Positions 3,602-49,430 are shown, numbered from the stretch's first letter. The stretch is 64,000 nucleotides of DNA from an uncultured Clostridia bacterium (GCA_947626485.1 CANQSG010000001.1:1109-65108), one strand, 5' to 3'. Notes: a model not told the origin generated them from the letters alone. Program-made: numbers and translations.

Positions 3602-3604
3602 ATT

Positions 3605-5500: not shown

Positions 5501-5527
5501 TGTTTCATTCCTCCCTGCCGCCTTCCC

Positions 5528-5557: not shown

Positions 5558-5565
5558 TTGATTTT

Positions 5566-6582: not shown

Positions 6583-6648
6583 GCGCTTGCTCCTTTCAAA
6601 AATCCGAAAGCTTTTTGGCGCTGCGTTCGCGCCCGGCTTCCCTTCCGA

Positions 6649-20591: not shown

Positions 20592-20628
20592 GGATTCTCC
20601 TCCCAAAGCTGTGGAATGGGTTGTTGAA

Positions 20629-20701: not shown

Positions 20702-22351
20702 TTATTTGACGCCTAATAACTGCCGTCTTACCTTGGCGACGTCGGCCTCCTCCACGGTGCCGTCGTCGTCTTTATAGACGTCAGCGGCAAAGCCGGCGTC
20801 GGTCAGGCGGTTTTTCAGGGTCACAAAATCGAGGATATCGGTTTGATCGTCGTCGTTGTAGTCGTATTTTTTCGCCCCGCAAAGCGAACAGACGACCTCG
20901 TCGCCGAACACGTGCGAGCAGGCGTTTTGATAGGTGCCGACGTCGTCGATGTAAATGGTCGTGGCTTCGGCAACGGTTCTCGGCATAAACTGCAAACCGC
21001 CTGCCCACTGCCCGTCGGCGGGCGCGTTTTTAATATCCGACCACGGAACAGTCACCACGCTTTTGCCCGCGGGTACGGTCACGTCGGAGGACGTATTCGC
21101 TGCGCTCGTCTTGAATTGCAAATACAAGGTAACCGGCTGATCGGTTTCGATCCAGAAGCGCACGCCGTCGCCGTCGCGCATCAGGCCGTCGGTGGCGGCG
21201 ATATTGCCGGCTTTCCCCGCGGGAATTTCATATTTCACCGAGCAGCTGCCGCTGCTGGCGTGAAGCGGGTCCTGATTCAGGGAAAGATGGGTGTCGACCG
21301 TCCAGTCGTACCAATTTTTCATCGTTGCCGCGTCAAAATCATAGGTGATCGTTTTGTTCGCGACCCACTTCGCATAGTAGGTTTTCTCGCCCTTCGCGTC
21401 GGCGGGGACGGCGTAAACGGGGTTTCCGGCAAGGTCGGCGCTTTCGTACCAGCCGGCAAAAATGAGGCCATACTTCGACGTTACGTCCGCATAGCCCGGC
21501 AGCGGCATGCCGGCGTAATAGTCGATGGGCGCCGGGGTCGCAAATTCGCCGCCGCGGGGGTCGAACGATATGCCTTCCATTTTGGAATAGGTGCCGACGT
21601 CGTCGAGGTAAAAGACTGTGGCCTCGGTAACGTTTCTTGACAGAATCTGCAAATTACCTGCCCACTGGCCGTCGGCGGGCGCGTTTTTAATGTCCGACCA
21701 CGGAATCGTCACCACGCTTTTGCCCACAGGGACGGTCACGTCGGAGGACGAATTGGCATTGCTTTGCTTAAAACGCAAATACAAGGTGATCGGATGATCG
21801 GTTTCGATCCAGAAGCGCACGCCGTCGCCGTCGACCATCAGGCTGTCGCTTACAAATATGTTGGCGGACGGATAGGGCGACGCGGGAATTACGTATTTTG
21901 CCGAGCAATTACCGCTGCTCGCGTGGCTCGGGTCTTCGTTTAAGGTAATGCGGTCGCCGACGACCCAGTCGCTCCACTCCGAATTCGTCGTTTTCAGGCC
22001 GGTCGTATCGAAATCATAGGTGATCGTCTTATTCGCGACCCACTTCGCATAGTAGGTCTTCTCGCCCGTCGCGTCGGCGGGGACGGAGGTATAGGTGCCG
22101 CCCGAGAAATCGGAATTTTCGTACCAGCCGGCGAAGATGAGATCTCCTCTTGCGATTTGGTCTATGCTCGGCAAGGGGTCGCCCGCCTGTAAGTCGGGAT
22201 CGACGAAGCCGGTCAATTTGCCACCGTTGCAGTTTAAGGTGACAGATAGGGGCGTATCACTCGCGGCATACGCATTCGGGAAGAGAAAGAGAGCTGCCAA
22301 CAGTCCGAATACAAGCAACAGCGACACGGAATTTTTAAGCCTGATTCGCAT
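20702..22351 (-). CDS. 549-aa secreted protein: two [Listeria-Bacteroides repeat + beta-sandwich] units plus a C-terminal dockerin
   Basis: Signal peptide LFLFPNAYAA. The modules are about 85% identical to unit 4 of the giant. The C-terminus DYNDDDQTDILDFVTLKNRL ... DVYKDDDGTVEEADVAKVRRQLLG forms two dockerin-type Ca-binding segments. Confidence 0.85.
   Translation of the reverse strand: MRIRLKNSVSLLLVFGLLAALFLFPNAYAASDTPLSVTLNCNGGKLTGFVDPDLQAGDPLPSIDQIARGDLIFAGWYENSDFSGGTYTSVPADATGEKTYYAKWVANKTITYDFDTTGLKTTNSEWSDWVVGDRITLNEDPSHASSGNCSAKYVIPASPYPSANIFVSDSLMVDGDGVRFWIETDHPITLYLRFKQSNANSSSDVTVPVGKSVVTIPWSDIKNAPADGQWAGNLQILSRNVTEATVFYLDDVGTYSKMEGISFDPRGGEFATPAPIDYYAGMPLPGYADVTSKYGLIFAGWYESADLAGNPVYAVPADAKGEKTYYAKWVANKTITYDFDAATMKNWYDWTVDTHLSLNQDPLHASSGSCSVKYEIPAGKAGNIAATDGLMRDGDGVRFWIETDQPVTLYLQFKTSAANTSSDVTVPAGKSVVTVPWSDIKNAPADGQWAGGLQFMPRTVAEATTIYIDDVGTYQNACSHVFGDEVVCSLCGAKKYDYNDDDQTDILDFVTLKNRLTDAGFAADVYKDDDGTVEEADVAKVRRQLLGVK
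20927..21406. repeat. Module-level DNA repeat, copy 2 in the 549-aa gene
   Basis: Same repeat family as 17680-18175, seen by direct comparison. Confidence 0.75.
21584..22081. repeat. Module-level DNA repeat, copy 1 in the 549-aa gene
   Basis: Same repeat family as 17680-18175, and the closest copy to it. Confidence 0.8.
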
Positions 22352-24001: not shown

Positions 24002-24940
24002 TTATCCGACTAATCCGCTTCGCTCAACGCTCTCGACAAAATAGCGTTGCGTGAAGAGATACAAAATCAAGAGCGGGACGACGAGAAACAGGATTCCCGC
24101 GTATGCCTGCAGGCTTAAGGAGGTCTGGTCGACGATGGTGGCGTCCGCCGTCGTCCCGTTGAAATCCCGCAGCAAAACAGGCAGGATATTCGCCTGACGC
24201 ATAAAGTTATAATTGAAATCGCAGTCGGTCCAGATCCACACAAACGAGAACAGGCCGATCGTGATCATCATGGTTTTCGCCCCCGGCAGCATCACGCGGA
24301 AGAAGGTGCCGATCGGGCCGCAGGCGTCGATCGCCGCCGCCTCCTCCATCTCCTTCGGCATTCCGTTGAAGAACTGCCGCATGATGAGGATATAAAGTCC
24401 GCACCGGAAGCCCGCCGCCACCGCCGCCAACACGATATTGGGAACCATGGTGTCGATAAAATTGAGCGGCTCGCCGTGATTGAGCAGCGGGATCAACCCG
24501 AACAGGTTGAAATTGCGGAAGAAATTGAACAGCGGGATTTGCAGCAGATCGGGCGGCAAAACCAGACCCAGCACGCACAAAAGCGTGAGCGGTTTGTTCA
24601 ACGCGAATTTAAACCTTGCCAGGCCGTATCCCACGAGGGTGCAGCTCGCCACGTTGAGCAGGGTGACCACCAACGCGTGCAGGATCGTCATGGGATAGGT
24701 TTTCTCCATTTCCAGGCTGTCCCAGGCGTCCGCGAAGTTTTTGAGCGTGAAATTGCGCGGGATGTACCGCACCGCCATATTGTAGGTATCCTCTTTCGTC
24801 ATAAAAACCGTAACGATTTCCGTAAACAGCGGATAAATGACGACAAACGCGATCAATCCGAAGAACGCCCACCGAACGATGTTTACGGCGAGGTTCAGCG
24901 AGGCCTTGTACAGCTTGGCCTTGCGAGCGGCGCTTTGCAT
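24002..24940 (-). CDS. Carbohydrate ABC transporter permease
   Basis: Multi-TM protein with EAA loop EEAAAIDACGPIGTFFRVMLPG. Confidence 0.9.
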   Translation of the reverse strand: MQSAARKAKLYKASLNLAVNIVRWAFFGLIAFVVIYPLFTEIVTVFMTKEDTYNMAVRYIPRNFTLKNFADAWDSLEMEKTYPMTILHALVVTLLNVASCTLVGYGLARFKFALNKPLTLLCVLGLVLPPDLLQIPLFNFFRNFNLFGLIPLLNHGEPLNFIDTMVPNIVLAAVAAGFRCGLYILIMRQFFNGMPKEMEEAAAIDACGPIGTFFRVMLPGAKTMMITIGLFSFVWIWTDCDFNYNFMRQANILPVLLRDFNGTTADATIVDQTSLSLQAYAGILFLVVPLLILYLFTQRYFVESVERSGLVG

Positions 24941-24976: not shown

Positions 24977-25873
24977 TCAGTTGTCGTAGGAGACGAAGCG
25001 GTTTGCAATCGCAAACACGATCCCCACGATCGCCAACACCACGACGATATACGACCACGCGACGGCGCTTCCCGAACCGAAGCGGAACGCGGTAAAGCAT
25101 TCGTAGCTGACGCGGTTGATAATGACGTTTTCCACGCCCGTAAAGGAATCTATCACGCAGTAAATGACCGAAACCAACAGCAGCGGGCTGATCATGGGCA
25201 GGCTGATTTTCCAAAGCACTTCCCAGGCGGTGGCGCCCTCGACGTAAGACGCTTCGTAAAGGGAGCGGCTCACCGATTGAAGCCCCGCCAGAATGATGAT
25301 GGTGGGTATCACGGATATATAGAGCAAATTGCCGATGTTGTCGACTGAGGCCGTCAAAAAATTCATCAGACCCTCGCCGATGCCCGCCTCCTCCAACGCG
25401 CTCACAAACCGTTCGGAGATCATCACCGACGCGTCGGCGCTTTTGCTCGCCATCTGAGTGGAAAGCGTATCCTTGCTCAGCAAAATTTCGACAGGCTTGG
25501 AGAACAAAATGAGCGGCATAAAAAGGATCGTTCTCGCAAAGCCGCGTCCGGGGAACTCGCTGTTGAGAACACACGCCAGGAAAAAGCTGAAAACGATCGC
25601 CACGGGCACCTTCAACAGCGTCCTTTGCAGCGTTTCCACCAGCTGGCGCAGGAAATCGGGGTCGACGGTAAAGAGATCCGAATAGTTTTGGAAGCCCACA
25701 AAATCAATCCGATAGCCGACGTCCTGCGGCACAAGATTGCCGAAGCTGTAAACAAGGGACAACACGATGGGGTAAACTACGCCGAGCAGCGAGCCGACGA
25801 TAAACGGCGCCGTGAACAGATAGCCGTATAAGCCCTTTTTCCGCTCCAGACTGCCGGTTTTTCTGCGTCTCAT
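24977..25873 (-). CDS. Carbohydrate ABC transporter permease
   Basis: True start is MRRRKTGSLERKKGLYGYLF at 25873, after a GGGAGGGG RBS. EAA-like loop YEASYVEGATAWEVLWKISLP. Confidence 0.9.
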   Translation of the reverse strand: MRRRKTGSLERKKGLYGYLFTAPFIVGSLLGVVYPIVLSLVYSFGNLVPQDVGYRIDFVGFQNYSDLFTVDPDFLRQLVETLQRTLLKVPVAIVFSFFLACVLNSEFPGRGFARTILFMPLILFSKPVEILLSKDTLSTQMASKSADASVMISERFVSALEEAGIGEGLMNFLTASVDNIGNLLYISVIPTIIILAGLQSVSRSLYEASYVEGATAWEVLWKISLPMISPLLLVSVIYCVIDSFTGVENVIINRVSYECFTAFRFGSGSAVAWSYIVVVLAIVGIVFAIANRFVSYDN

Positions 25874-25874
25874 T

Positions 25875-28433
25875 TCATTCAGCCCCTCCCAACGCGAAGT
25901 CCTTCGGCGGAACGGTGACGCCCTCATACCGGAAGGCATCGCCGTTATAATTGACGATCACATACCTGCCGTTCTCGTAGGTCGTTTTATAAACGCCCTC
26001 CGCCAGCTTTTCGTAATCCGTGATTTGCCTGCCGGCAACGCTTGCCAGGCGGCTTTGGGTCTCGGCGATTTGTTTTGGCAGGGTTTGCTTCCAATAGGCA
26101 AAATCGGTCGCATACAGATCGCTCCGGCTGCTGCCCGCAAGCCGATCCGAATTCTGCGCGGTGACGACGCACGACAAGCCGGAGCCCGACGACACCGCCT
26201 GCAGCAGCGCGTTCTGAACGTCTCCCGCGAGGTTGAGCGAGGGGGCGTAATAGTTGACCTTGCCGCTGAGCACCATTTGCAAAAACGGGACCGACAGATC
26301 CGTCATATCGAACCCCGACGATTCGACGGGGACGTTCAAGGCGTTGACCGTATAAGGCAAGGCGTAGGCGTTGGCGCCCTGCGTCGTGATGCGGTAACCC
26401 GACTCGCACAGCTCCTGCAAATAGGCGGACACGCGATCGGCCATTTGCTGCCGATCCACCGTGGCGCTGCCGTAGTCCGCCGACAGCTCGGCGCCGACCG
26501 TCCGCAGCGAAATCTCCTTCGCATCGTATTTTTCGACCGAGCTTTTCAAGGCGTTGACGGCTCGAAGCTGCGCGTCGGCGTTGTTGATATAGGCATACCG
26601 ACTCGTCCTGCGCATAAAGCTCGCCCGATCGTATGGATAGACCTTGCCGGTGGACTGGTCGAGCATGGCGGCGGCGTCGGAATATTTGCCGAACCCGTCA
26701 AACGCGCCGTCCTTCGCCGTATATTGAACGTCGGCGTCCAGATAAAACGGGACGCCCTTCGCGCGCATGCCGTCCAGCAGTTCCCGCAGCTTTTTCCCCG
26801 AGCCGAGCCGCTTGGAAGCGGAAACGGTTTTGGACAAGAACGCGTGCTCCAGTCCGTCGCCGAACCAACCGCGGAATACGACCGAAAGGTTTTCGATCCC
26901 GCTTTGCGAAAACGCGTCCGTGATCGCGAGCGACTGCTCGAAATCGGTCAGGGCGACCTTTTGGTCGTATGCCACGCCGAGGAACTGATTTTGGCGCGTC
27001 ACCATGCCGATCTGCTCGAGCATGACGGGCAGCGAGCCGGCGGCGACGGTTGCGTCGTTTGCAAAAATGCTTTCGCGGACGATCGCCGCCATATCGGCCA
27101 GGCGCGCATTTTCTCCGCTTATAAAATGATACTGCAGCGAAACGTCTCCGGTATAGCGCTGCTTTTGGATGACGACGTAGGACTCCTTTTTGCCCGTTGC
27201 GGTCGTCTGTTTATAGGTGGAGCGAAGGTTGAAAACCGCGTGGGCATAGGCCGCGTCCGCGTTGTCGCCCGCATAGGCGACGATCTGCGAAACGGCGTCG
27301 CCCTCGGCGATTTCACACAGCACGCCGTGCCCGCCGTTTTGAATGCCGAAAACGGGCAGGCTCGCCCCCGCGTCATAATCGAGATTTTCCTTGCCCGCCT
27401 GCGTCTTCTCCTGCCCGTACACCGTCGTCCTGTAGATCTGATTCGACTTTCCGTTATAGAAATTCATCAGAGACCCGCTTCCGTCCGGAAGCAGGAACCA
27501 GCCTTCCTCCCCGAAAACGGGGGAGCCGAAATAGGGCGCGACCGCAAGCGACGTCAGCGGGAACTCGCTGCTCATCTCAATGCCGTCGTAAGGAACTCGG
27601 ATATTCAAGCTGTCGTTTTGGAGCGCATATTCGACCGCAAGATTGAAGCCCGCAGAGGCTTTCGCGGCATTGTCGGCGCTGAAATATGCGGAATCCGCCT
27701 TGTAATCTTCTTCGGTATAGCCCGCGTCGGCAAAGATCGCCTCGACGTCCTTTTTTGCCAACGGGTCTTCCTTCACGCTGTCGCGTATCAGATACAGCTT
27801 CTGCTCCGCGAGCTTCGGATACTCCTGCAGGCGTTTTTTCCTGAAATCCGCGTCCTCGATCACGTCTATATCGGTTAAATAATAAAGGTCGATCAGCTTC
27901 ATCTGCTCGAATTCGTCGGTCAGCGCATCCTTCACCTCGCGAAACCGCGCTTCGGTCAGGGCGTAAGGGATCCGCGCAAGCTCCGAAAAATCGCCGACGC
28001 TGTACCGAACGGTCACCTTTTCGTCGGACGGCTCGACCTTGTATTTCCCGTCGACCACCGAGCCGGTCATGACGTCCGTATCCTCCAGCCCGCCCTGGGA
28101 ATTCAGGTAAGACAAATGCACCGGCGCGGCCTCCGGAGAGCCGTCCGCCCGGTTCGGATTGGAAGAATACCACGCGGAGCCGTTTTCCTTGTTCACCACC
28201 TTGAATTCGGTGGTGTTCTCGTTCAGCCAAAACTGAAGCCGGTCGTTTTCCAGCAGCAGGGTATATTCCTTCTCGGAAACGTCGTTGTCTGCCGTGCCGG
28301 CGTCGATGATGTTCTCGTTATGAATGCTCTCGCTGATTTTCGGCGTATCGGACGAAAACGCCGTCACCGCGATTCCGGCAAGGACGGCGACAACGAGCGC
28401 GCCCGCTGTTACGGCCTTCCATTTGCGTTTCAC
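25875..28433 (-). CDS. Membrane-anchored extracellular protein of the type I recall being annotated DUF5696
   Basis: GTG start at 28433 after AAAGGGGG. Single N-terminal TM (AVTAGALVVAVLAGIAVTAF). Clear paralog of 62413->64000 (VPFLQMVLSGKVNYYAP versus VPFLPILLKGHVDFYAP). The family name comes from memory only. Confidence 0.7.
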   Translation of the reverse strand: MKRKWKAVTAGALVVAVLAGIAVTAFSSDTPKISESIHNENIIDAGTADNDVSEKEYTLLLENDRLQFWLNENTTEFKVVNKENGSAWYSSNPNRADGSPEAAPVHLSYLNSQGGLEDTDVMTGSVVDGKYKVEPSDEKVTVRYSVGDFSELARIPYALTEARFREVKDALTDEFEQMKLIDLYYLTDIDVIEDADFRKKRLQEYPKLAEQKLYLIRDSVKEDPLAKKDVEAIFADAGYTEEDYKADSAYFSADNAAKASAGFNLAVEYALQNDSLNIRVPYDGIEMSSEFPLTSLAVAPYFGSPVFGEEGWFLLPDGSGSLMNFYNGKSNQIYRTTVYGQEKTQAGKENLDYDAGASLPVFGIQNGGHGVLCEIAEGDAVSQIVAYAGDNADAAYAHAVFNLRSTYKQTTATGKKESYVVIQKQRYTGDVSLQYHFISGENARLADMAAIVRESIFANDATVAAGSLPVMLEQIGMVTRQNQFLGVAYDQKVALTDFEQSLAITDAFSQSGIENLSVVFRGWFGDGLEHAFLSKTVSASKRLGSGKKLRELLDGMRAKGVPFYLDADVQYTAKDGAFDGFGKYSDAAAMLDQSTGKVYPYDRASFMRRTSRYAYINNADAQLRAVNALKSSVEKYDAKEISLRTVGAELSADYGSATVDRQQMADRVSAYLQELCESGYRITTQGANAYALPYTVNALNVPVESSGFDMTDLSVPFLQMVLSGKVNYYAPSLNLAGDVQNALLQAVSSGSGLSCVVTAQNSDRLAGSSRSDLYATDFAYWKQTLPKQIAETQSRLASVAGRQITDYEKLAEGVYKTTYENGRYVIVNYNGDAFRYEGVTVPPKDFALGGAE

Positions 28434-28481
28434 AGGATGTGCCCCCTTTCGAAAGCGGCAAAATCGTTTCCCTTCGGCGGA

Positions 28482-30563
28482 TTATACGGCGCTTGCCGCT
28501 TCGGAGATCAAATCCCCGATGAAATCGACCAGCTGTTGAGACAGCGCCAGAACGAGCATGCCGATAAAGAGAATCAGCAGGATCACAATTACGGTAATCA
28601 GGATGGCGACAAGGGTCTTGCCCATGGTAAAATTGTGCGTTTGCTTGACCGAGCAGACGAGCAGAAACACCATCCAAAGCATCGCCAGGGTGACGAGCAC
28701 GTGGTAAAAATCTCCCTCGTTGATCAGCAGCACGCGGCTCAACAGAATGGCGAAGACGTTTACCAAAGCGTAAGGCGTCGCGGCGTAGCAGGTGGCGGTA
28801 TAGATGTCCTTCAGCCTGCCCTCGCCGTTCATCAGCGTCGTCACGCACCACTGGCATATCGTCCACAGCGCGACCGCGGCGACAAGGTACAGCACGCTGA
28901 AAATACTGTATTTTTCGAGGTCGGTGGTGTTGAAGATAAAGCCCGTGCCGAGGCTTGCGGCGACGTTGACGGCCATACAAGCCAGCAGCAAAACCGTTGC
29001 CGCGACCGCGTTGCCGCAGTTTTCGCGTTTTAAGCACCAAAAGCCGTCCAGCGGGTGCGTCGCGCAGCGCCCGGCGTAAACCACGGCTTCTACTTGCGGA
29101 TGGCGGGAAATAAACCTGCCGATGCGCTTTTTGTTGCGGGACAAAACGACCGCGCCTGCCGCGACGACCAGGACGACGGCGGCGATGATCCCTATATTAT
29201 TTTCGATCCAGCTGCGGCGCACAAAGGCATACGCCTTCGAATAATCCTCCCGGTCGCCCGCGAGCTTGTAATATTCCATGGCAAGCGGCATGTTTTTCGC
29301 CTTGTATGCGGCGTTGCCGAGGCCGCGCATCGCCATGGTGCAGTTCACGTTTCGCGCTAAAATCTGCTCCCACAGCGCTTTTTCGGTCTCAAAATCGATT
29401 TCCGTGCGGGCTTTTGCGACCCCGCCGAGCAGTCTGCCGTACTCAGTCAGTTCAAAGACGTCGATCTGCATTTTGGAGGCGTCGAGCACGTAATAACGGT
29501 TGTCGTAATATCCGATGGCCGTCCCCTGCTGGATCGTCCCCGAGACGTTGCCCGGCCCGCCGAATTCATAGAGCAGCTCGCCGACGCTGTTATAGGCGAA
29601 GACGCGCCCGCGCTTTTGGTCGAGCACGGCGAAATCCCCATAACTTAACATGCAAACGTCCGAGAAGGTCGAATTTCCCTTATAGGTCTCCCCGTTGCCG
29701 GTTTTGTCTCCGACGGGATTCCCGACCCGGTTCAGCACGTCCAGCCCTTTCGCGTTGAGCTTGCGGACCGGCGTCGGTTCGCCGTTGGAATCGTCATAGG
29801 CCGCGGTCGTGACGAACAGGAAGCCTTCCCCGTCGATCGCGACGTTCGAATACTCCGTAGGAACGTATTTCCTCGTCCGCTCGCGCTGCGCCTTGGTCTG
29901 AAAGTTCGCCCAAAATTGATCGATCAGGGATTTTACCACCTGCGGCGCCCCCATCGACTGCGCGTATCCGCCGTTCGGGTCAAACTCCATCAGACCCGCG
30001 TTATAGCCCTCGGAAATGACGTACATCTGGCGATAGGCGTCGACCGCGAGCTTTGTCGGCTTAAAGGCGAAATCCGCCTGCAAAATCTCGTCCGCCGGCG
30101 CGTGAACGATCTGCAAAAGCTCCTGCTTCGGCGACAGCTTGACAACGCGCGCGTTCTCGGTGTCGGATATGAACAGATTATCGTCGTCGTCGACAAAGAT
30201 CCCGCCGGGCGCTTTGAACGTATCGGGCTTTCCGTCGTTTAAGAAGCCGTCGATGATTTTTACCGTTTGCCCGGAAGTGCCGACCTTCTCGATGATTACG
30301 ATCCGATTGTTTCCGGTGTCGGCGATATACAGGGCGCCCGATTTGGAAAAGCACAGATCCTGCGGGCTGTTCCACCTGCCGATGCCCAAAGTCTCGCCCT
30401 TGATGACGTAGGACAGTTCCGCCGGCGAAGGAGCGGGCTGCGTATTTCCGTCTTTATCGTAGACGTAGGTATCCGTAACGGCGGCCGACGCGTTGACCGT
30501 CAGCACGGCCGTCATAAGTACAGCCAGCAGCAGGGACTTTATCCATTTGCTCACAGTCGGCAC
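28482..30563 (-). CDS. Fusion membrane protein: signal peptide + NHL-repeat beta-propeller + TPR-like segment + C-terminal Yip1-family multi-TM domain
   Basis: NHL-type strands GALYIADTGNNRIVII and NLFISDTENARVVKL. TPR-like GLGNAAYKAKNMPLAMEYYKLAG. Then HPLDGFWCLKRE followed by 5 hydrophobic helices, typical of bacterial YIP1-family proteins. GTG start with AGGAAGG RBS. Confidence 0.75.
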   Translation of the reverse strand: MPTVSKWIKSLLLAVLMTAVLTVNASAAVTDTYVYDKDGNTQPAPSPAELSYVIKGETLGIGRWNSPQDLCFSKSGALYIADTGNNRIVIIEKVGTSGQTVKIIDGFLNDGKPDTFKAPGGIFVDDDDNLFISDTENARVVKLSPKQELLQIVHAPADEILQADFAFKPTKLAVDAYRQMYVISEGYNAGLMEFDPNGGYAQSMGAPQVVKSLIDQFWANFQTKAQRERTRKYVPTEYSNVAIDGEGFLFVTTAAYDDSNGEPTPVRKLNAKGLDVLNRVGNPVGDKTGNGETYKGNSTFSDVCMLSYGDFAVLDQKRGRVFAYNSVGELLYEFGGPGNVSGTIQQGTAIGYYDNRYYVLDASKMQIDVFELTEYGRLLGGVAKARTEIDFETEKALWEQILARNVNCTMAMRGLGNAAYKAKNMPLAMEYYKLAGDREDYSKAYAFVRRSWIENNIGIIAAVVLVVAAGAVVLSRNKKRIGRFISRHPQVEAVVYAGRCATHPLDGFWCLKRENCGNAVAATVLLLACMAVNVAASLGTGFIFNTTDLEKYSIFSVLYLVAAVALWTICQWCVTTLMNGEGRLKDIYTATCYAATPYALVNVFAILLSRVLLINEGDFYHVLVTLAMLWMVFLLVCSVKQTHNFTMGKTLVAILITVIVILLILFIGMLVLALSQQLVDFIGDLISEAASAV

Positions 30564-30581
30564 CGCCTTCCTGTTGTAAAA

Positions 30582-31484
30582 TTACTCTTTGATGCCGGAG
30601 GACATCATCGTCTCCATAATGTTGCTCTGCGTGATAATAAACACGCAAACGGGCACGATCATCATCAGGGTGGAGATCGCCGCGCTCGCGCCGGCGCGCA
30701 CGATGCCCGCCGACATGACCTGCGACAGCGCGTAAGGAAGCGTTTTCAGCTCCTCGCTGTAAATATAACTTCCGCCGGTCACGCCCCACAGGTTTTGAAT
30801 CGAGAAGATGATCAGCGTCATCCAGGCGGGTTTGGCGGAGGGCATCACGATCTTCCAGAAGATCCGCTGCTCCCCCGCGCCGTCGATCCGCGCGGCCTCC
30901 AGGATCGTGTTGGGGATCCCGACCATGAACTGCTTCATCAAAAACACGTTGAGCGACGAGCCCATCACGGGGATCAAAATGGCCGCGTAGCTGTCGATAA
31001 AGCCGATTTTAGACAGGATTAAAAAGTTCGGGATCGCGGTTACCGTGGGGGTGAACAAAAGCGTGTTGACGACGATGTTGAAGATGACGTTTTGCATTTT
31101 GAAGCGCTTCTTTTCGAGCACATACGCCGCCATGGAAGCGATAAAAATGGAGCCGACGGTGCCGGTGACGGTGAGAAATACCGTGTTTAATATGTATCTT
31201 GACAGCGGCACTAAGGAATCGGAAAAGAGAGAGGGAAGCGTGAGAAAGTTGTCCAGGGTCGGGTTGCGGACGAAAAACCGCGGCGGAAACACGAACAGCT
31301 CGTCAAGCGGCTTAAACGAATTGGAGATCGAAAACACGACCGGGACGAGCATGATCGCTCCCAAAAACGCAAGGAACACGAACAGGAGCAAATTCCCGCC
31401 GAACGAGCGTCCGGTCTTACGCTTGAATATCCCGATTTTTATGGTGAACACCCCTTTTCCACGCCCTTGCGCGCTGCGTTTCAT
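30582..31484 (-). CDS. Carbohydrate ABC transporter permease
   Basis: EAA loop LEAARIDGAGEQRIFWKIVMP; 6 predicted TM segments. Confidence 0.9.
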   Translation of the reverse strand: MKRSAQGRGKGVFTIKIGIFKRKTGRSFGGNLLLFVFLAFLGAIMLVPVVFSISNSFKPLDELFVFPPRFFVRNPTLDNFLTLPSLFSDSLVPLSRYILNTVFLTVTGTVGSIFIASMAAYVLEKKRFKMQNVIFNIVVNTLLFTPTVTAIPNFLILSKIGFIDSYAAILIPVMGSSLNVFLMKQFMVGIPNTILEAARIDGAGEQRIFWKIVMPSAKPAWMTLIIFSIQNLWGVTGGSYIYSEELKTLPYALSQVMSAGIVRAGASAAISTLMMIVPVCVFIITQSNIMETMMSSGIKE

Positions 31485-31491
31485 GCCGGGC

Positions 31492-32397
31492 TTACTGCCC
31501 TACGTTTCTGATAATCTTTTGTGCGATCGCCTTTGTCAAGAGCATCAACGCAAACAATATCGTCGCGATCGCGCAGGCATATCCCATTTCAAACCGAATG
31601 CTGCCGTAATCCTCCAGGTGATTCATCAGGGTGTGCGCGGCGTAATCGGTGCTGGGGAAGCCGCACAAAGCCGTGGTGACGGCGCCGACGCTGAACGCCG
31701 AGGAAATGCTCATCACCGCGCTGAAAAGCAGCTGCGGACCGAGGCAGGGCAGGGTGATAAACCAAAGCTCCTGCCACCTGTTGCGGACCCCGTCGACGTA
31801 GCCAGCTTCGTACAGCGATTTGTCCACGCCCTGCAACCCCGCGACCAAAGCCAAAAAGCCCGTACCCAGGCTCATCCAAAGCGTTACGGCGATCACGAGG
31901 GGCAGCATATATCTTGTATCGGTAAACCATTGGATCGGCTCGTTGATTAGGTTGAGCCGCAAAAGGATGGCGTTGACGTATCCGTAAGCGTCGCTGTTGA
32001 AAAGCAGCTGCCAGATCATATAGGCGCCGCCGGATATGGAGGGCGCGTAAAAGACGAGCACCATGACCGCCCGCAGCCGCGGACTCAATTCGTTTAACAG
32101 CCACGCCAAAATCAGGGACGCAAAATACCCGATCGGCCCCGTGAACAAGGCGATAATCAGCGTGTTTTTGAGACCCAGCAGAAACTCGTCGTCGCTTAAA
32201 AACAGATCGAGGTAATTATCGAAAAATACGAATTTCGGAAATTCGAGGCCGTTGAAGCTCGTAAACGACAGGGCGAAGGAGATAAGGACCGGCAGCAGGG
32301 TAAAGACGGTGAAAATGATTAAAAAAGGAGCCAAATAGAAAAAGGAAAAGCACTTGTCTTTGTTGATGCGCATTTTGCCCGGCGCTGCATTTTTCAC
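31492..32397 (-). CDS. Carbohydrate ABC transporter permease
   Basis: GTG start after AAAGGGGGG. EAA-like loop YEAGYVDGVRNRWQELWFITLP. Confidence 0.9.
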   Translation of the reverse strand: MKNAAPGKMRINKDKCFSFFYLAPFLIIFTVFTLLPVLISFALSFTSFNGLEFPKFVFFDNYLDLFLSDDEFLLGLKNTLIIALFTGPIGYFASLILAWLLNELSPRLRAVMVLVFYAPSISGGAYMIWQLLFNSDAYGYVNAILLRLNLINEPIQWFTDTRYMLPLVIAVTLWMSLGTGFLALVAGLQGVDKSLYEAGYVDGVRNRWQELWFITLPCLGPQLLFSAVMSISSAFSVGAVTTALCGFPSTDYAAHTLMNHLEDYGSIRFEMGYACAIATILFALMLLTKAIAQKIIRNVGQ

Positions 32398-32420
32398 GGT
32401 GACCGCCCCCCTTTTCTTCG

Positions 32421-35252
32421 TTATCGGATTCCGAATTCTTCGCGCTTTTTGGAAAGCTCCTGATTGATCTTGTAGGTGTAATCATAAAGCGCATCCGTCG
32501 GATCGACGCCCTTATACACGACCGCCCGGAAGGCGTTTGTAATATTGCGGCTTAAGAAGTAGCTGCCGGGCACGTTTTCCACCGCGGTGAGATCCTCCGC
32601 CTGCTTTTGGAAAACCGCTTTGCACGCCTTGGACCAGGAGCTGTATTGAAAGGCTTCGGTATTCGCCGAGCTGTAACGACCCGAGGGGCCCAAAAGGCCT
32701 TCGATCTCCATGGCGAATTGCCTTTGAACCTCCGCCGAGGTCCACCATTTCAGGAACTCCCAGGCGTCCTCTTTGCGATCGGACGACGCCATGATCATGG
32801 CGCCGGACGCGTTTGAAATCGCCGTGCGGTCGATACTGCCGTCCGCGCGCCGGGTGCCGGGGATTTGCGCGATATTCCACAAGCCCTCGATTTCGGGCGC
32901 CGCGACGGCGATTTCGTTGTAGAAGGAAAGCCCCGAAATCCCGATGGGCATTTCGCCCGTCCGAAATCTATTCAGGAAATTGTAGGTGAGCGGGAAGCCG
33001 TAGTTGGTATATAAGTTTGTGAAATAGCGGAAGGTCTCAATGGAATCCACGCCGTCGAGCAGGCAATATTCCCCGTCGTTGGCGTAAATTTCCAGACCCT
33101 TTTGCTTGTACATCGACATATACATGCCGACCAGCGTCAAAACGCCCGTGTTCGAAGTCACCATATTGCCGGCGTCCGTGGGAATTCCGAACTCCATGTT
33201 GTTTTTACTGAGCGCGGAGGACAGCGCGATCACGTCGTCCCAGGTTTCCGGCACCTTTACGCCGAGCTCTTCAAACACATCCGTGCGGTAGTACAGCACG
33301 GGGAAGGAGATCGTTTCCGGAAGGGCGTAAACCTTCCCGAGATAGGTAAATGGTATGCTGAGCGAAGCGTCGAAGCGATTCTTGATTTCGGCGTAATCGG
33401 GAAAATCCGAAAGCGGAACGGCGGCGTTTCGCATCGCGAAGTTGAAAACGTCCGGCGTGCTGTTGATCACAACGTCCGGGCCGACGCCCGCGACCTCCGC
33501 GCTGATAAGCGACGCCTGCACCAGCTGCACGTCCGCAAGGATCCCCTGCTTGGCGGTGAAGGAATTCGCGATCATATTGCGGACGATTTGCGCCTGCTCT
33601 CTGCCGCCGCCGATCCAGATCGTTATGGGCGCGGCATCGGCGTCGTCGTTCCCCAAATCGCCCATGCCCCGATAATCGGCAGAGAGCGAAAACAGCAGCT
33701 TTTTGGCCTCGAACAAAAGGTTGGAGAAAAAATTCTCCTTGGCGGCGGGCATTTCGTTTATCGTCCCGCCCACGCCGATGGCGTCGATGCGGAGCGGCTG
33801 CTGCTTCATGGTGCTGCATTGCGAGCTCAACGACCCGATGTTGGTTTTAAAATAAGAGAACTCGGACGGAATACAGTCGGGGTCCTCGTGCATTTTAAGC
33901 AGCTGCCTTACCAACGTGCGGATAAACGCCGCCGCGGCGTTGCCCTTTCCGCTGTAGCTTTCCAGCCAATCGGCGCAGACGTTGAGGGTGTCGGCCTGCA
34001 CTTTGAGATCGGCGATCTCATCCGGGCACAAATAGCCGAGACGATAATCGCGCAGCAGATCGGGCTCGGCGCCCATGATAATCAAAAACCTGCGGAAGAT
34101 ATCGTTGAGCGAGTTCGACGTATTTTCAAGCAGTCGGATCACCGTATCCATGTCGCCGAGCGTCGCGACCATTCGGATCTCGTTTTCGCCTTTTTTGAGA
34201 TGGAACAGGAAATCCTCTTCGCCGCTGCCGAGGGTGACCGTCTGCCAGTCGGCGTCGTACCCCACGGTGATATTCTGCGCTTCCCGGAAGGGAATTTCCC
34301 CGTTTATATACAGAGAGCGGGAAGAAACCGCGCCGATCGACGTGTTTTGTTTTGCGCGGAGATGGATTTTATAAAGCCCGTCGGCGGGGGCGTTTACCGT
34401 CCATGCGATGTAATCGCCCGCGCGGCTCCATTGCGAGCCGCCGATGCTGTTCAATTTCACGACGCCGGCGGAGAGCGGCTCGGTTATTGCGGAGCTTCTG
34501 TCCGATATGGGGTAAATCATGGTGGAGGATTTATATGCCGTATTTTCGGCTTGATAAATTTCCAACGCGCCCTTTACTTCGGTATATCCTTTTTGACCGT
34601 ATTCTTCTTTGACCTTCTGATAAGGCTTGATCTGATTGACCGGCTTTAGAATTACCGAATCGATTTCGGCCGTGCCGCTTATGATCTCCAGTTCGAGCAC
34701 GTCGTTCTTTCCGGTAAGATAAACGCCGAGGGGCTGCGCGTACGTCAAAGCCGTATCGTAAAGATAATTTTCGGTCATGCGCTCCGCCGGAACCTGTTCG
34801 GGGCGCAGATCGTTCCCGTATTTGTCCTGAATCAGGGGGGAAGTATCGCAATATTCATCGGGGAGCTTTACCGAATCGAGCTCGCTGTACGGCGCCTCCC
34901 CGTTCAGCTTGAACGCGACGGTCGTCCCGTCCTCGTCGTTGACGGGATGGGGCAAATACCGAACGACGACGTCGTAAAATCCGCTTTCGGCCGCCGGCAG
35001 TTCCCATTCAAACAGACCCTTTTCGTCTTTTGCCTGCTTGACGGAAAGCGTGATATTTTCCGTCGCGTCGGATTCTTCCCGGCTGTACCTGCGCAAATAC
35101 GCGCTGTAGCTGTCGTCGCGTTCCGTTTCGGCTTCGCGCGCAGTCAGCATGGAGGAATCGACGGCGGCGGCGGGCTTTTCCGCTTTCCCGCAAGCCGCCG
35201 TAGATGCAGCTAAAATAAGTAAGGCTGTAACCAACGATACAAAGCGCTTCAT
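32421..35252 (-). CDS. 943-aa ABC solute-binding lipoprotein with a ~520-aa N-terminal extension (two CBM6/35-like beta-sandwiches + helical region)
   Basis: Lipobox LAASTAAC and GGAGGAAG RBS. Contains EIYQAENTAY, an (I/L)EAE-type CBM start also seen in the 53098 and 56672 proteins. The SBP body begins near PITIWIGGG. Confidence 0.8.
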   Translation of the reverse strand: MKRFVSLVTALLILAASTAACGKAEKPAAAVDSSMLTAREAETERDDSYSAYLRRYSREESDATENITLSVKQAKDEKGLFEWELPAAESGFYDVVVRYLPHPVNDEDGTTVAFKLNGEAPYSELDSVKLPDEYCDTSPLIQDKYGNDLRPEQVPAERMTENYLYDTALTYAQPLGVYLTGKNDVLELEIISGTAEIDSVILKPVNQIKPYQKVKEEYGQKGYTEVKGALEIYQAENTAYKSSTMIYPISDRSSAITEPLSAGVVKLNSIGGSQWSRAGDYIAWTVNAPADGLYKIHLRAKQNTSIGAVSSRSLYINGEIPFREAQNITVGYDADWQTVTLGSGEEDFLFHLKKGENEIRMVATLGDMDTVIRLLENTSNSLNDIFRRFLIIMGAEPDLLRDYRLGYLCPDEIADLKVQADTLNVCADWLESYSGKGNAAAAFIRTLVRQLLKMHEDPDCIPSEFSYFKTNIGSLSSQCSTMKQQPLRIDAIGVGGTINEMPAAKENFFSNLLFEAKKLLFSLSADYRGMGDLGNDDADAAPITIWIGGGREQAQIVRNMIANSFTAKQGILADVQLVQASLISAEVAGVGPDVVINSTPDVFNFAMRNAAVPLSDFPDYAEIKNRFDASLSIPFTYLGKVYALPETISFPVLYYRTDVFEELGVKVPETWDDVIALSSALSKNNMEFGIPTDAGNMVTSNTGVLTLVGMYMSMYKQKGLEIYANDGEYCLLDGVDSIETFRYFTNLYTNYGFPLTYNFLNRFRTGEMPIGISGLSFYNEIAVAAPEIEGLWNIAQIPGTRRADGSIDRTAISNASGAMIMASSDRKEDAWEFLKWWTSAEVQRQFAMEIEGLLGPSGRYSSANTEAFQYSSWSKACKAVFQKQAEDLTAVENVPGSYFLSRNITNAFRAVVYKGVDPTDALYDYTYKINQELSKKREEFGIR

Positions 35253-38392: not shown

Positions 38393-39394
38393 TCAGGCCA
38401 TGGTTTTGAGCATTTCTTGGGTTACTTCGCAGCGGGTGGGGCGGTTTTGGAGGTGGGCTTGAAATTCCGCCAGCATCGACTCGGACATGCGGCGGACTTC
38501 ATCGCCGGAGCTGCCTGCGATGTGGGGGGTCAGGAAGCAGTTGGCGAGGTCGAAAAGCTGGCTGTCGGGCGGGGGCGGCTCCGGGTCGGTCACATCGAGC
38601 ACGGCGGTGAGGTCGGGGCGCTCGCGCAGTGCGGCGCACAGATCGGCTTCCACGACCTGCGCGCCGCGCCCCGTGTTGAGGAAAACGGCGCCGCGCGGCA
38701 TGGAAGAAAAGAGCGGATAGGTCAGAAGTCCCCGGGTCTGCGCGTTGTCGGCGAGGTGATTGGAGACGACGTTGCAGCTGCAAAAGAGCCGTTCGAGCGA
38801 CGCTTTTTGCACGCCGAGCTCCTCCGCCGCGTCGTCCGGCAAAAACGGGTCAAACACGAGAACCGAAAAATCGTAAGCTTTCAGCAGCCGAATGACGCGT
38901 TTGCCGATCATGCCGGCGCCGATGATCCCGATTTTCGCGCCGTAATTGCCGCGGCAGAGCGACGCCTGCCGTTTGGCCTGCGCGTAATTGCCGCCGCCGG
39001 CGAGGCGCGCCGCCTGAAAAAAGCCTTTGCCGGCAAGCACGATCTGCGCGGTCGTATACTCCGCGACCGGCACGGCGTTTGCCGCCCATGCGCTGAAAAC
39101 CTTCACGCCGCAGCGCAAAAAGGGCGCGGCGAACTGCCGCACCGTGCCCGCCGCGTAAAACACGCATTTCAAATTGGGAAGATACGTTTGAATTTCCGTT
39201 TCCGAAAGCGCCGGCATGCCCCAGGTCGAGAAGAGATACGCGGCGTCCGAAAACGCCGCCGGGTCGTTTGCCAGATCGCGCCGCCGGTAAACCGTCGCAT
39301 CAAGCCGGGTCAGCGCCGCGATCGCGTCGATCACATCATCGGCGTAAACCCGGCGAAACGTCGCTTCGTCTTCGCACAAAAATACGGCTTTCAT
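38393..39394 (-). CDS. D-isomer-specific 2-hydroxyacid dehydrogenase family protein
   Basis: True start is MKAVFLCEDE at 39394 (ATGA overlap with the upstream stop). Contains IGIIGAGMIGKRV (NAD fold) and TPHIAGS (catalytic His). Confidence 0.85.
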   Translation of the reverse strand: MKAVFLCEDEATFRRVYADDVIDAIAALTRLDATVYRRRDLANDPAAFSDAAYLFSTWGMPALSETEIQTYLPNLKCVFYAAGTVRQFAAPFLRCGVKVFSAWAANAVPVAEYTTAQIVLAGKGFFQAARLAGGGNYAQAKRQASLCRGNYGAKIGIIGAGMIGKRVIRLLKAYDFSVLVFDPFLPDDAAEELGVQKASLERLFCSCNVVSNHLADNAQTRGLLTYPLFSSMPRGAVFLNTGRGAQVVEADLCAALRERPDLTAVLDVTDPEPPPPDSQLFDLANCFLTPHIAGSSGDEVRRMSESMLAEFQAHLQNRPTRCEVTQEMLKTMA

Positions 39395-40152
39395 AGACTG
39401 TCCTCCGCGATTCGGCGCAGCGCCTCTGCTTCCGTCGGCAGGGATTCGATTTTGTCGTCCGGCATGAATTCGAGGAGCAGCGTCCGTTCCCCGGAAAAGC
39501 ACCCGAGGTATTCCCTCCAAGCCGACGCCGCGGCCGCCAACGGGCGGTGCGTCTTCCCTTCCCAGTTGAACACGTGGATATGCGCGGTGTAGGGGGCGAG
39601 GAGCGCCGCGTACGCCTTGTTTTCCGCGACGGTGCGAAACGGGTCCGGCTGCCAGTACATGCCGAACCGGTCGGATTGCAGGGCTTCCATCAATTCGAGC
39701 GCCGCTTCCTTCGTATGCGTCCAGCTGCCGCCGTGACATTCGAGGCAGAGCCGGACGCCCCGCGCCCGCGCCGTTTTTTCCGCCGCCCGGCAGGCGGAAA
39801 ACAGCGCTTCTTTTTCGCCCGCCGTGTATGCCTCGGGGTTTTTCTCGCCGCACCAGAGCCGCAGGACGTCCGTGCCGAGCAGCTTTGCCGCGTCGATATA
39901 CCCGTCGAGCTCGGCGAGCGGCGAGGAGCCGAGGCGGAAATAGGTGCCGTAAGAAGAGCAACGGACGCCACACGCCTCTTGCAGGCGCGCAAGCCGCGCG
40001 AGGCCTTCGCGATCTGCACAGGGCGCGTGAACGTCGCTGCCCCATTCGATGCAGGAAAGTCCCGCCGCCCGCACCGCCCGCAGGATTTCCTCCGGCGTGT
40101 TTTTTCGAAACGAAACGGACGCAAGTCCGAACCGATACCGTTTCATGCGCAT
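39391..40152 (-). CDS. Sugar phosphate isomerase/epimerase (xylose-isomerase-like TIM barrel) 1
   Basis: 253 aa with CIEWGS, LCLECH and HVFNWEG metal-ligand-type motifs. Confidence 0.75.
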   Translation of the reverse strand: MRMKRYRFGLASVSFRKNTPEEILRAVRAAGLSCIEWGSDVHAPCADREGLARLARLQEACGVRCSSYGTYFRLGSSPLAELDGYIDAAKLLGTDVLRLWCGEKNPEAYTAGEKEALFSACRAAEKTARARGVRLCLECHGGSWTHTKEAALELMEALQSDRFGMYWQPDPFRTVAENKAYAALLAPYTAHIHVFNWEGKTHRPLAAAASAWREYLGCFSGERTLLLEFMPDDKIESLPTEAEALRRIAEDSL

Positions 40153-42454: not shown

Positions 42455-43201
42455 TCAGGCGAGCCCCCAGCTGCGAAGCCGGGCGTAGCTGCGGCGCAGG
42501 CAGTCGAACGGGTTTTCCCCGTTGCAGTCGTCCTGCTCGACCAGCATGTACCGGGTGCCGCTCTGCTCGGCCGCCTGAAACACGCGGTCAAAATTGATGT
42601 TCCCCTCGCCGATGACCGCCATTTTGCGGCCGTAAGCGAAATCCTTCAAATGGATACAGGGGACGCGGCCGGCAAGCAGCTCGAGGTACTGCGCCGGGTC
42701 GCCGCCGCCCGCCTGCACCCAAAAGGTGTCGAGCGTGATGCCCATTTCCGCCGGGGCGAAGTCCTCCGCTAACTTTTGCAGGATCGTCCTGTCCCCGATT
42801 TTCCGGAATTCGTAATCGTGGTGGTGATACATGAAGTATTTGCCGCCCTGCCGCAGCGCCGCGGCGACCGGCTTATAGGTATCGAGAAACGCGTCGTAAT
42901 GCTCGGCGTCGGCGCCGAAATCGAAAAAGCCCAGACCGATATAGTCGCAGCCGAAGCGGTCGTGATCGCGGATGACCCGCTGCGTGTCGTTTTGCAGCGC
43001 GGCGGGCGGGGTGTGGGTGATCACGCACCGCAGCCCGTTTTTTTGCAGCTCACTGCGCAGCCAGTCGGCATCATACGCACAGGTGCCCGACACCTGCACG
43101 CAGCGATAGCCGATGTCGGCGATTTTTTTCAAGGCTTCGGACAGCCCGGATAAATCCTGACAAAAGTCCCGCACGGTAAACATTTGCGCGCCGATTTCCA
43201 T
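42455..43201 (-). CDS. Sugar phosphate isomerase/epimerase (TIM barrel) 2
   Basis: Start MEIGAQMFTVRDF at 43201 (GGAGGA RBS); the ORF-track start is 21 nt upstream. Confidence 0.75.
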   Translation of the reverse strand: MEIGAQMFTVRDFCQDLSGLSEALKKIADIGYRCVQVSGTCAYDADWLRSELQKNGLRCVITHTPPAALQNDTQRVIRDHDRFGCDYIGLGFFDFGADAEHYDAFLDTYKPVAAALRQGGKYFMYHHHDYEFRKIGDRTILQKLAEDFAPAEMGITLDTFWVQAGGGDPAQYLELLAGRVPCIHLKDFAYGRKMAVIGEGNINFDRVFQAAEQSGTRYMLVEQDDCNGENPFDCLRRSYARLRSWGLA

Positions 43202-43205
43202 GTTT

Positions 43206-44060: not shown

Positions 44061-44062
44061 CG

Positions 44063-44914: not shown

Positions 44915-44920
44915 GACGCG

Positions 44921-45973: not shown

Positions 45974-45993
45974 TCGGCGTTTCCTCCGTTTTT

Positions 45994-47172: not shown

Positions 47173-47186
47173 GCTGATTCCCCCGT

Positions 47187-48362: not shown

Positions 48363-48443
48363 GAAAAACCCTCCAGATTTCGTTAATGATTTACAAATTC
48401 CGGTTTTGAAATCTATTCAAAACAGAGTGAATTCACAAAAATA

Positions 48444-48472
48444 TTGCAATATGGCGCCGATTGTATTATACT
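48444..48472 (+). promoter_or_regulatory. Sigma-A promoter TTGCAA-17 nt-TATACT for the AraC regulator
   Basis: Read directly: -35 at 48444-48449, -10 at 48467-48472. Confidence 0.55.
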
Positions 48473-48496
48473 GAAACGGGAAAGGGGCGACGCAGA

Positions 48497-49348: not shown

Positions 49349-49430
49349 AGCAATTTCATTCTACCATGTTCCCGGGTAAAATACGATTGTTTATCGAACG
49401 CAAAAAAGATTGCAAATCGTCCGGGGCATT

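Follow-up and report, generated by a model that had tools for sequence, protein, structure and literature searches.

The sugar importers of Gram-positive polysaccharide utilisation loci (gpPULs) are of the CUT1 type known from MalEFG and UgpABE: their lipoprotein solute-binding proteins (SBPs) belong to the SBP_bac_1/8 families, their permeases are heterodimers of a UgpA-like and a UgpE-like subunit, and carbohydrate-active enzymes (CAZymes) and AraC or LacI regulators are encoded alongside. How Bacillota of gut, rumen, soil and termite communities break down fibre is known in less detail than the Sus-like systems of the Bacteroidota, and we know of no marker gene comparable to susC/susD in Gram-positive loci. 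The present contribution deals with a stretch of 64,000 nucleotides (nt) from an uncultured Clostridia bacterium (GCA_947626485.1 CANQSG010000001.1:1109-65108), referred to as the window, and with an operon on its minus strand from which an earlier note had singled out five genes: a very large SBP (the giant SBP), two permeases (p1A and p1B), a membrane protein with NHL, TPR and Yip1 domains, and a protein of the DUF5696 family. We found these genes to be part of a larger unit of invariant gene order, which we read, with a probability of roughly 0.55, as an eight-gene glycan-uptake module composed of two CUT1-type importers, a non-catalytic DUF5696 subunit for glycan binding and hand-over, and an organiser of the NHL/TPR-Yip1 type.

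All five open reading frames (ORFs) are present on the minus strand with gaps of 23, 7, 18 and 48 nt from the giant SBP to the DUF5696 gene, and the domain search that the earlier note had proposed returned Pfam matches for DUF5696, Yip1 and NHL alike. The operon does not, however, close at 25875, where the cassette had been taken to end. A second permease pair (p2A and p2B) and a second SBP (SBP2), both overlooked, continue it with gaps of 1-36 nt and without a convincing terminator; the likely start of p2A is the ATG at 25873, 1 nt past the DUF5696 stop codon, while the longest ORF runs from 25939. Like the importers of other gpPULs, the unit thus comprises SBPs with lipobox-like N-termini and permease pairs that NCBIfam assigns as UgpA-like plus UgpE-like, the canonical MalF/MalG-type heterodimer, and like them it is flanked by CAZyme and regulator genes. 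No ABC ATPase was found among the large ORFs scanned over the 64-kb window, a further likeness, and Bacillota ABC sugar importers often share ATPases encoded elsewhere (MsmX/MsmK). Import as the direction of transport and an oligosaccharide as the cargo would follow from this family membership. The unit departs from ordinary CUT1 systems in having two permease pairs and two SBPs in fixed order, two obligate accessory membrane proteins, one SBP that is extended by two CBM35-like modules and a helical bundle, about 540 residues in all, and permeases of dedicated orthogroups, whose scores on their own models are 4-8 times higher than those of CUT1 permeases in the same loci.

The extent to which this arrangement is conserved was determined by a scan of 185,579 genomes (one per species), which was queried with a 14-sequence DUF5696 subset, the full 47-sequence alignment being too diverse, and which returned at least 574 DUF5696 loci. 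Hidden Markov models of each part were run on the six-frame ORFs of the best 80 of these loci. As far as the contigs reach, the order giant SBP, p1A, p1B, NHL and Yip1 (fused or not), DUF5696, p2A, p2B is identical in 80/80, and all nine domains are present in 69. Nine loci reached by other routes (homologues, plasmid matches, distant giant-SBP homologues) have the same order. DUF5696 homologues of only 24-37% identity, from Paenibacillus, Gracilibacillus, metagenome-assembled genomes (MAGs), a Butyrivibrio plasmid and a Paenibacillus plasmid, are found in the same arrangement, the giant SBPs in homologue neighbourhoods measure about 940-985 amino acids (aa), and the association is reciprocal in that the most distant giant-SBP homologues (28-31% identity) also lie inside the module. 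Clustering of the flanking ORFs further showed an SBP of about 460 aa adjoining the module in 68/80 loci, immediately upstream of the giant SBP in 45 cases and immediately downstream of p2B in 19 cases; the 527-aa SBP of the window matches the profile of this SBP2 family at E 2e-74. The four permeases form four separate orthogroups, with scores of about 300-520 on their own models versus 40-130 on the other three (for full-length p1A copies, 387-517 versus 58-84 on the next permease model), whereas ordinary CUT1 permeases in the same 80 loci score only 70-140 on the module models. In 44 of 76 loci the DUF5696 stop codon and the p2A start overlap by 4 nt, and in most others they lie within 2 nt of each other; these overlaps suggest that the two genes are translationally coupled.

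The assumption that the genes behave as a module is therefore borne out, their co-occurrence being far above chance. The family is also large: a profile search of 1.84 billion cluster representatives (50% identity) gave 7,487 DUF5696 clusters at E<=1e-3 and 4,193 at E<=1e-30. A literature search found no paper on DUF5696 or on the combination of Yip1, NHL, SBP and permeases. The module is made of known kinds of parts in a combination that has apparently not been studied; this combination is invariant as well as abundant, and it is tuned to the glycan.

The most unusual of these parts is the DUF5696 protein, which matches PF18952 with 516 bits (cut-off 25.6) over profile positions 1-612 of 612. 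Its AlphaFold2 (AF2) model (mc8f7b9cef9c3; predicted local distance difference test score, pLDDT, 88.8; predicted template-modelling score, pTM, 0.85) has an N-terminal transmembrane (TM) helix (residues 8-26), a beta-sandwich that holds a helical insert of about 100 residues (161-260), a (beta/alpha)8 barrel and a C-terminal beta-sandwich. This three-domain fold is shared with the glycoside hydrolase (GH) families GH129, represented by the alpha-N-acetylgalactosaminidase NagBb (5wzn) and the 3,6-anhydro-D-galactosidase ZgGH129 (5opq/8rzk), and GH101. Foldseek against the PDB placed GH129 first (5opq, E 1.9e-29; 8rzk; 5wzn, E 4.6e-22; TM 0.67-0.72 and E 1.9e-29 to 1e-21 overall), followed by GH101, GH36 and GH13. 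A plain sequence search against PDB chains gave noise only; the homology emerged with a 47-sequence DUF5696 profile, which found GH129 chains at E 6.4e-11 and 2.5e-6. In hhalign, DUF5696 aligned to ten GH129 sequences (gathered by tblastn against plasmids and chromids) with 98.9% probability and E 2e-16 over 581 columns; all ten were needed, as against a single GH129 sequence only the C-terminal domain was aligned. By the profile search and hhalign, the relation is true remote homology beyond a shared shape. Both families have an LP..(E/S)G motif in the N-domain, D-Y after strand 4 (D653, corresponding to D528 of GH129) and G-N after strand 5 (N688). DUF5696 differs from GH129 by its membrane anchor, its helical insert, its constant location inside an ABC-importer operon and the lack of a Pfam GH129 match: PF11308 does not match DUF5696 even at E<=10, while a control from Bacillus mycoides scores 1e-114. 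The glycosidase fold that the earlier note had expected is thus present, and no characterised CAZy family claims the protein by Pfam. The control is of interest in its own right, since this 774-aa 'hypothetical' protein, encoded at 5356-7680 of the B. mycoides plasmid pl546, is a clear GH129 member with both catalytic residues present.

The same note had looked for paired acidic residues in this fold, and here the outcome is different. Two residues, the Asp of F-x-D-x-D-A and the Glu of G-S/T-E-G-G-N, do not vary among the ten GH129 sequences and align with D435 and E478 of NagBb, which we take to be the nucleophile and the acid/base, respectively; the assignment is consistent with this invariance and with the D486N label of PDB entry 8rzk. 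In the window's protein the nucleophile aligns with R644 (neighbour T645) and the acid/base with Q685, and there is no conserved acid at positions 642-646. hhalign places Q685 with a confidence of about 0.8 and D653 with one of about 0.9; since the latter residue, 9 residues past R644, is anchored to the invariant D528 of GH129, a register shift would be limited to 1-2 positions. D653 itself had been our first guess for the nucleophile and was rejected, as the profile alignment pairs it with this second conserved Asp, 10 residues past the nucleophile of GH129. Column 644 reads R/G/S/K in the 47 homologues, R/G/S/K/T in 127 sequences (the 80 loci and these 47) and R/G/S/A in 145 further cluster representatives; the corresponding readings are T/N/D/S, D/T/S/N and D/T/S/N for column 645, and N/E/S/Q, E/N/S/D/Q and D/E/S/N for column 685. 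Columns 644 and 685 vary over 319 DUF5696 members, even inside clades that share a CAZyme context (column 685 is N, E, D or Q in a single GH10/GH43-linked clade), none of the 127 sequences (0/127) has an acid at both, and the second DUF5696 copy of the window has D644, K645 and A685. The Asp nucleophile, second Asp, Glu acid/base and His of FAHG that are invariant in GH129 are unconserved in DUF5696. Most of the residues conserved in the family, R661 being one of the conserved residues, sit at the C-terminal ends of the barrel strands, the usual sugar-binding face. Judged from these alignments, DUF5696 keeps the pocket but not the catalytic dyad of GH129. A surface glycanase or lyase that feeds the importer, as proposed in the earlier note, is hence not the best reading, since the canonical catalytic columns vary; of the expected glycosidase fold with paired acids, the fold was found and the canonical pair was not.

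Pairwise identities were averaged over 57 complete loci. The most conserved part is p1A (mean identity 0.69), followed by p1B (0.65), the C-terminal domain of the giant SBP (0.58), p2A and p2B (0.52), Yip1 (0.48), the N-terminal domain of the giant SBP and NHL (0.44 each), DUF5696 (0.37) and, as the most variable part, SBP2 (0.33). All parts co-diverge, with raw distance correlations of 0.84-0.97, which indicates that modules are inherited whole. The residual correlations form two blocks, one of the SBP C-domain with p1A and p1B and one of SBP2 with NHL and DUF5696, the CBM-like N-domain joining the latter. DUF5696 clades track the flanking CAZymes across genera, with GH10/GH43 (five genera), GH26, GH30 and Treponema GH5 contexts; other contexts are PL11 (rhamnogalacturonan), GH18 and GH16, and the enzyme sets next to the module include those for xylan, mannan, beta-glucan, pectin, chitin and peptidoglycan. 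Such varied sets fit a binding or scaffold part of tuned specificity better than one fixed enzyme activity. After SBP2, the most frequent neighbours are genes for response regulators of the AraC type, in 29 loci, and for LacI regulators, in 17. Two modules from different clades occur together in seven of the genomes behind the 80 loci, as they do in the window. In this the module resembles SusC/SusD and the surface glycan-binding proteins of Bacteroidota PULs: a conserved uptake core, several paralogues per genome, each copy tied to a different CAZyme set, clades that follow the glycan, and, probably, non-catalytic glycan-binding accessories. The proteins, the cell envelope and the energy coupling are unrelated, and the analogy is one of function.

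A substrate-contacting role can also be proposed for the extension of the giant SBP, the Pfam SBP domain of which spans only residues 575-868 of 943. Its AF2 model (pLDDT 86.4, pTM 0.79) shows a lipobox (..STAAC), two beta-sandwiches (residues 67-204 and 231-364), a four-helix bundle (366-483) and a MalE-like SBP (543-943), the last resembling oligosaccharide binders such as Lin1841 and MalE. The profile of its N-terminal orthologues matched two family 35 carbohydrate-binding modules (CBM35) in the PDB, that of CITase (5x7g, E 2.4e-6) and that of CsxA (2vzp, E 1.8e-3). Pfam CBM_35 matches 7 of 15 orthologues (best 2.2e-6); the window protein itself gives a sub-threshold Golvesin_C match only. 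Foldseek with the whole model returned MalE-like matches only, the identity of the N-terminal part being drawn from profiles and secondary structure. The CBM-like additions that the earlier note had described are thus two beta-sandwiches, probably of the CBM35 kind.

The second accessory protein consists of a signal peptide, an extracytoplasmic part made up of a putative NHL beta-propeller and a TPR region (about residues 28-456), a TM helix (457-475) and a Yip1 domain with five TM segments (about 520-672), as judged from Pfam and hydropathy. The matches to Yip1 (PF04893; E 9e-16, 58.7 bits versus a cut-off of 28.6; five hydrophobic segments within residues 520-672) and NHL (PF01436; E 1.4e-13, 50.6 bits versus 20) are clear, an SGL/ScyF-like region matches weakly, and TPR_16 (E 6e-4) stays below Pfam's own cut-off. 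NHL and Yip1 are encoded by separate, overlapping genes in 65/80 loci and are fused, as in the window, in 15/80. The closest described case is YknW of Bacillus, likewise a Yip1-domain membrane protein encoded inside an ABC-transporter operon, which has been reported to influence how the YknXYZ transporter is assembled (PMC4887032). YknWXYZ, however, is a MacB-type exporter with a membrane-fusion protein and no importer that depends on an SBP, and YknW lacks the NHL/TPR ectodomain; the two share a Pfam family, and the comparison is an analogy. On this analogy, the role of partner or scaffold that the earlier note had suggested for the NHL/Yip1 protein is plausible.

Our proposal for the working of the module is as follows. 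Importer 1, formed by the giant SBP, p1A and p1B, would be the highly conserved engine whatever the glycan, its CBM-like arm contacting the glycan. Importer 2, formed by SBP2, p2A and p2B, would be the variable half and, together with DUF5696, would probably carry the substrate specificity. The cargo would be an oligosaccharide freed by the neighbouring enzymes. DUF5696, produced at a constant ratio to the second permease pair, would not cleave this oligosaccharide; it would act as a membrane-anchored glycan binder and hand-over protein or as a scaffold of the second importer. The NHL/TPR-Yip1 protein would organise the assembly, as YknW reportedly does for its transporter, and the ATPase subunits would come from elsewhere in the genome. 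The module would then be a chassis, combined with different CAZyme sets in different lineages. Gene content and order, distribution, folds, the missing canonical dyad and the match between module clades and CAZymes are what we observe; the non-catalytic role of DUF5696, its physical association with the permeases and the scaffolding function are what we infer.

A precedent for such a role of a glycosidase fold is provided by the SLC3 heavy chain 4F2hc/CD98hc, which has lost catalysis in its glycosidase-fold ectodomain and partners a multi-pass transporter. Like DUF5696, the SLC3 heavy chains (4F2hc/CD98hc and rBAT) are single-pass proteins with a glycosidase-fold, GH13-like ectodomain; the sequence similarity to DUF5696 is marginal (E 0.09-0.3 along some 50 residues), the transporters are of another class and the organisms of another kingdom, and the association of DUF5696 with its permeases, unlike that of SLC3, is deduced from gene coupling.

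Several observations weigh against our proposal. The SBP domain of importer 1 keeps an identity of about 58% between modules that serve chemically different glycans, which the proposal leaves unexplained, and the residual co-variation of the parts may partly reflect a shared class of evolutionary rate. The sequence of the DUF5696 TM helix is unconserved beyond K6 and lends no support to an intramembrane contact with a permease. The alignment confidence is only 0.2-0.3 at the nucleophile column 644, and register shifts are excluded up to 2 residues only; about 25-45% of members have Asp at position 645, and one GH30-linked clade reads RD...E in 7/7. Three acids are highly conserved, namely D317 in the LPDGSG loop (94-100%), D/E342 (94-96%) and D653 (96%), as are residues of the type found in sugar pockets: W523, N688, Y690, F717 and N734.

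These residues speak for an active DUF5696, which we consider less likely than a non-catalytic subunit yet its most serious competitor. DUF5696 would then represent a new family, related to GH129 and GH101, of membrane-anchored glycosidases, transglycosylases or lyases with relocated catalytic residues, for instance D653 with D317 or D/E342 from the N-domain loops, or D645 with E685 in some clades, and would trim oligosaccharides at the membrane before uptake by the adjacent permease pair, much as the earlier note had supposed. The glycosidase fold with its true remote homology to GH129, the acids conserved at 94-100% and the conserved aromatic, Asn and Asp residues on the catalytic face of the barrel are all in line with this, and some Bacilli clades read SLRD..(A/G) and EGGN, resembling F-x-D-x-D-A and SEGGN of GH129. 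Against it, the canonical nucleophile and acid/base columns vary inside one and the same CAZyme-context clade, the two copies of the window have R644/T645/Q685 and D644/K645/A685, and no acid pair is strictly invariant over the 145 further representatives. The loci, moreover, have dedicated endo- and exo-glycosidases of their own, which act on chemically unrelated glycans, and the relatives in GH129, GH101, GH36 and GH13 are all alpha-glycosidases, a poor fit to the beta-linked backbones of xylan, mannan and glucan. Clade-specific positions are about two-fold enriched in the barrel, a modest effect that would also suit diverging enzyme specificities and that we take as evidence for neither view.

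A bolder form of the non-catalytic reading, in which all eight proteins make up a single membrane machine with the two importers joined by the NHL/TPR-Yip1 protein and by DUF5696 as a dead-glycosidase 'heavy chain' that captures and feeds glycan, seems doubtful to us. Such a machine would correspond, within the Bacillota, to the SusC/D core, and its heavy chain would be a bacterial analogue of SLC3/4F2hc. If true, this reading would allow the uptake of larger oligosaccharides than ordinary SBP-dependent importers take, and DUF5696 plus the four permease families would be a universal sequence marker for Gram-positive PULs.

It is rather improbable that the giant SBP, p1A, p1B and the NHL/Yip1 protein are a generic device, either a sensor that signals to AraC-type, two-component or LacI regulators encoded nearby or an importer for a product shared by all contexts, and that only SBP2, p2A and p2B import the specific oligosaccharide. 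Such a device would account for the identity of 58-69% that p1A/p1B and the giant SBP's SBP domain retain where SBP2 and DUF5696 are at 33-37%, for the same contrast between paralogous modules of one genome, and for the prevalence of AraC-type and LacI regulators among the flanking genes after SBP2. The SBP domain, however, looks like an ordinary MalE-type oligosaccharide binder and p1A/p1B like ordinary UgpA/UgpE-type permeases, the CBM-like N-terminus, at an identity of 0.44, changes along with the module in the way a part in contact with the substrate would, and the Pfam scan gives no signalling domain in any module protein. Finally, an ordinary sugar ABC operon beside unrelated hypothetical genes, conceivable insofar as each part alone comes from a common family (SBP_bac, BPD_transp_1, NHL, Yip1), is refuted by the invariant order over two Bacillota classes and Treponema, the co-divergence of all parts, the reciprocal association from distant giant-SBP homologues and the overlapping reading frames.

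The coordinates of the module and its control elements are given in Table 1. The terminator-like hairpin closes the gene before the operon and sets the operon's upstream limit. A near-consensus promoter had been claimed by the earlier note, and a candidate was found directly past this terminator, about 270 nt upstream of the giant SBP gene. Promoter-like matches are not enriched across the region (9 found versus 9.9 expected in shuffles), and the site is credible because of its position, not because of the number of matches.

Table 1. Positions of the module parts, the second module and the putative control elements in the window.
Feature	Coordinates	Strand	Basis
Terminator-like hairpin, strong, intrinsic type	35689-35659	-	13-bp stem with 8 GC pairs, then T-run
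Promoter-like site TTGCCA-17-TATAAT, extended -10 TG	35548-35520	-	11/12 consensus match alone
Giant SBP, lipoprotein, 943 aa	32421-35252	-	Pfam SBP_bac_8/1
Two CBM35/CBM6-like beta-sandwich modules of giant SBP, residues 67-364	34161-35054	-	Profile matches and AF2 model
Permease p1A, UgpA/MalF-type, 6 TM	31492-32397	-	Pfam BPD_transp_1 and NCBIfam
Permease p1B, UgpE/MalG-type	30582-31484	-	Pfam BPD_transp_1 and NCBIfam
NHL/TPR/Yip1 accessory protein, 693 aa	28482-30563	-	Pfam and hydropathy
DUF5696 protein, 852 aa	25875-28433	-	Pfam E 1.7e-154, whole model
Permease p2A, UgpA/MalF-type	24977-25873	-	Pfam, NCBIfam, own model
Permease p2B, UgpE/MalG-type	24002-24940	-	Pfam, NCBIfam, own model
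SBP2, lipoprotein, 527 aa	22399-23982	-	Pfam SBP_bac_8
Second DUF5696 copy, cut by window end	62413-64000	-	Pfam E 3e-131, 439 bits
Permease p2A' of second module	61523-62416	-	Start overlaps second DUF5696 stop by 4 nt
Permease p2B' of second module	60598-61536	-	GH30 gene next downstream

On the same strand, SBP2 is followed by genes for two surface proteins with Flg_new repeats, a GH5, an AraC regulator, two GH2, a CE4 and an RHGA-like protein. With degrading enzymes, transporter and regulator co-located in this way, the locus is a Gram-positive PUL. Both surface proteins are encoded in the operon directly after SBP2. One of them (15402-20606, minus strand; 1734 aa) has four Listeria-Bacteroides (Flg_new) repeats, and the other (20702-22351, minus strand; 549 aa) has Flg_new repeats and a weak dockerin-like C-terminus; most of the length of both is without a Pfam match.

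The recurrence of DUF5696 with permeases at 60598-64000, pointed out earlier, was confirmed as a DUF5696 copy with two permeases. This copy is divergent and shares 24% identity with the first. Behind the second module come a GH30 gene, a GH36/GH97-like gene and genes of the uronate pathway. Downstream, the minus strand encodes the mannonate dehydratase UxuA, a short-chain dehydrogenase/reductase (SDR), two GFO/IDH/MocA oxidoreductases, xylose-isomerase-like TIM barrels and an FAD oxidoreductase (42455-51119); these uronate and sugar-acid genes hint that the second module serves a glycan containing uronic acid. Two ORFs between the GH30 and the GH36/GH97-like genes (53098-56595, 1165 aa, and 56672-58774, 700 aa; both minus strand) have no Pfam domain and are candidates for unclassified carbohydrate-active enzymes. 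In another ORF on the minus strand (38393-40045; 550 aa), the NAD-binding domain of a D-2-hydroxyacid dehydrogenase occupies only residues 340-510, and the N-terminal part of about 340 residues is without a Pfam match. At 2470-3525 on the plus strand, close to the window's first letter, lies the gene for a tyrosine recombinase (Phage_integrase, E 9e-25), inside a stretch (2001-4000) of 44% GC versus 52-64% elsewhere in the window, which suggests the boundary of a mobile element.

The hosts of the module comprise Bacilli (Paenibacillus, Cohnella, Lederbergia, Bacillus, Amphibacillus), Clostridia (Ruminococcaceae, Acutalibacteraceae, Oscillospiraceae, Lachnospiraceae, Butyrivibrio, Hungateiclostridiaceae), Haloplasma and termite-gut Treponema MAGs. 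Among the loci listed, the closest relatives of the window are uncultured Ruminococcaceae and Acutalibacteraceae (56-59% identity). Complete modules are present in seven termite-gut Treponema loci (L031, L033, L037, L038, L053, L068 and L080), i.e. in spirochaetes, which have an outer membrane. Since the Treponema modules form a clade with Clostridia sequences, we suggest that they were acquired from Bacillota by horizontal transfer. Two further contexts depart from plant fibre. In Haloplasma contractile (L098, 1-22895) the module is flanked by genes of peptidoglycan turnover, namely GHL10, glucosaminidase, SpoIID, beta-lactamase-fold, NamZ and DUF624 genes, not by plant-fibre enzymes, and the chassis may thus also serve the recycling of cell-wall fragments. 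On a Paenibacillus cellulosilyticus plasmid (L007, 3561-25184) an ATPase gene of the ugpC type lies directly upstream of the module; behind it come four flavin oxidoreductases of the LLM class with extra SBPs in between, and CAZymes are absent, an unusual context.

The module adds to the known partners of ABC importers an apparently non-catalytic protein with a glycosidase fold and a putative Yip1-anchored beta-propeller, both of them obligate; to our knowledge such partners figure in no current model of SBP-dependent transport. Being large, strictly syntenic and present in several copies per genome, the module could serve as a marker of Gram-positive PULs, and as its clades predict the linked CAZymes, it could be used to annotate their glycan specificity.

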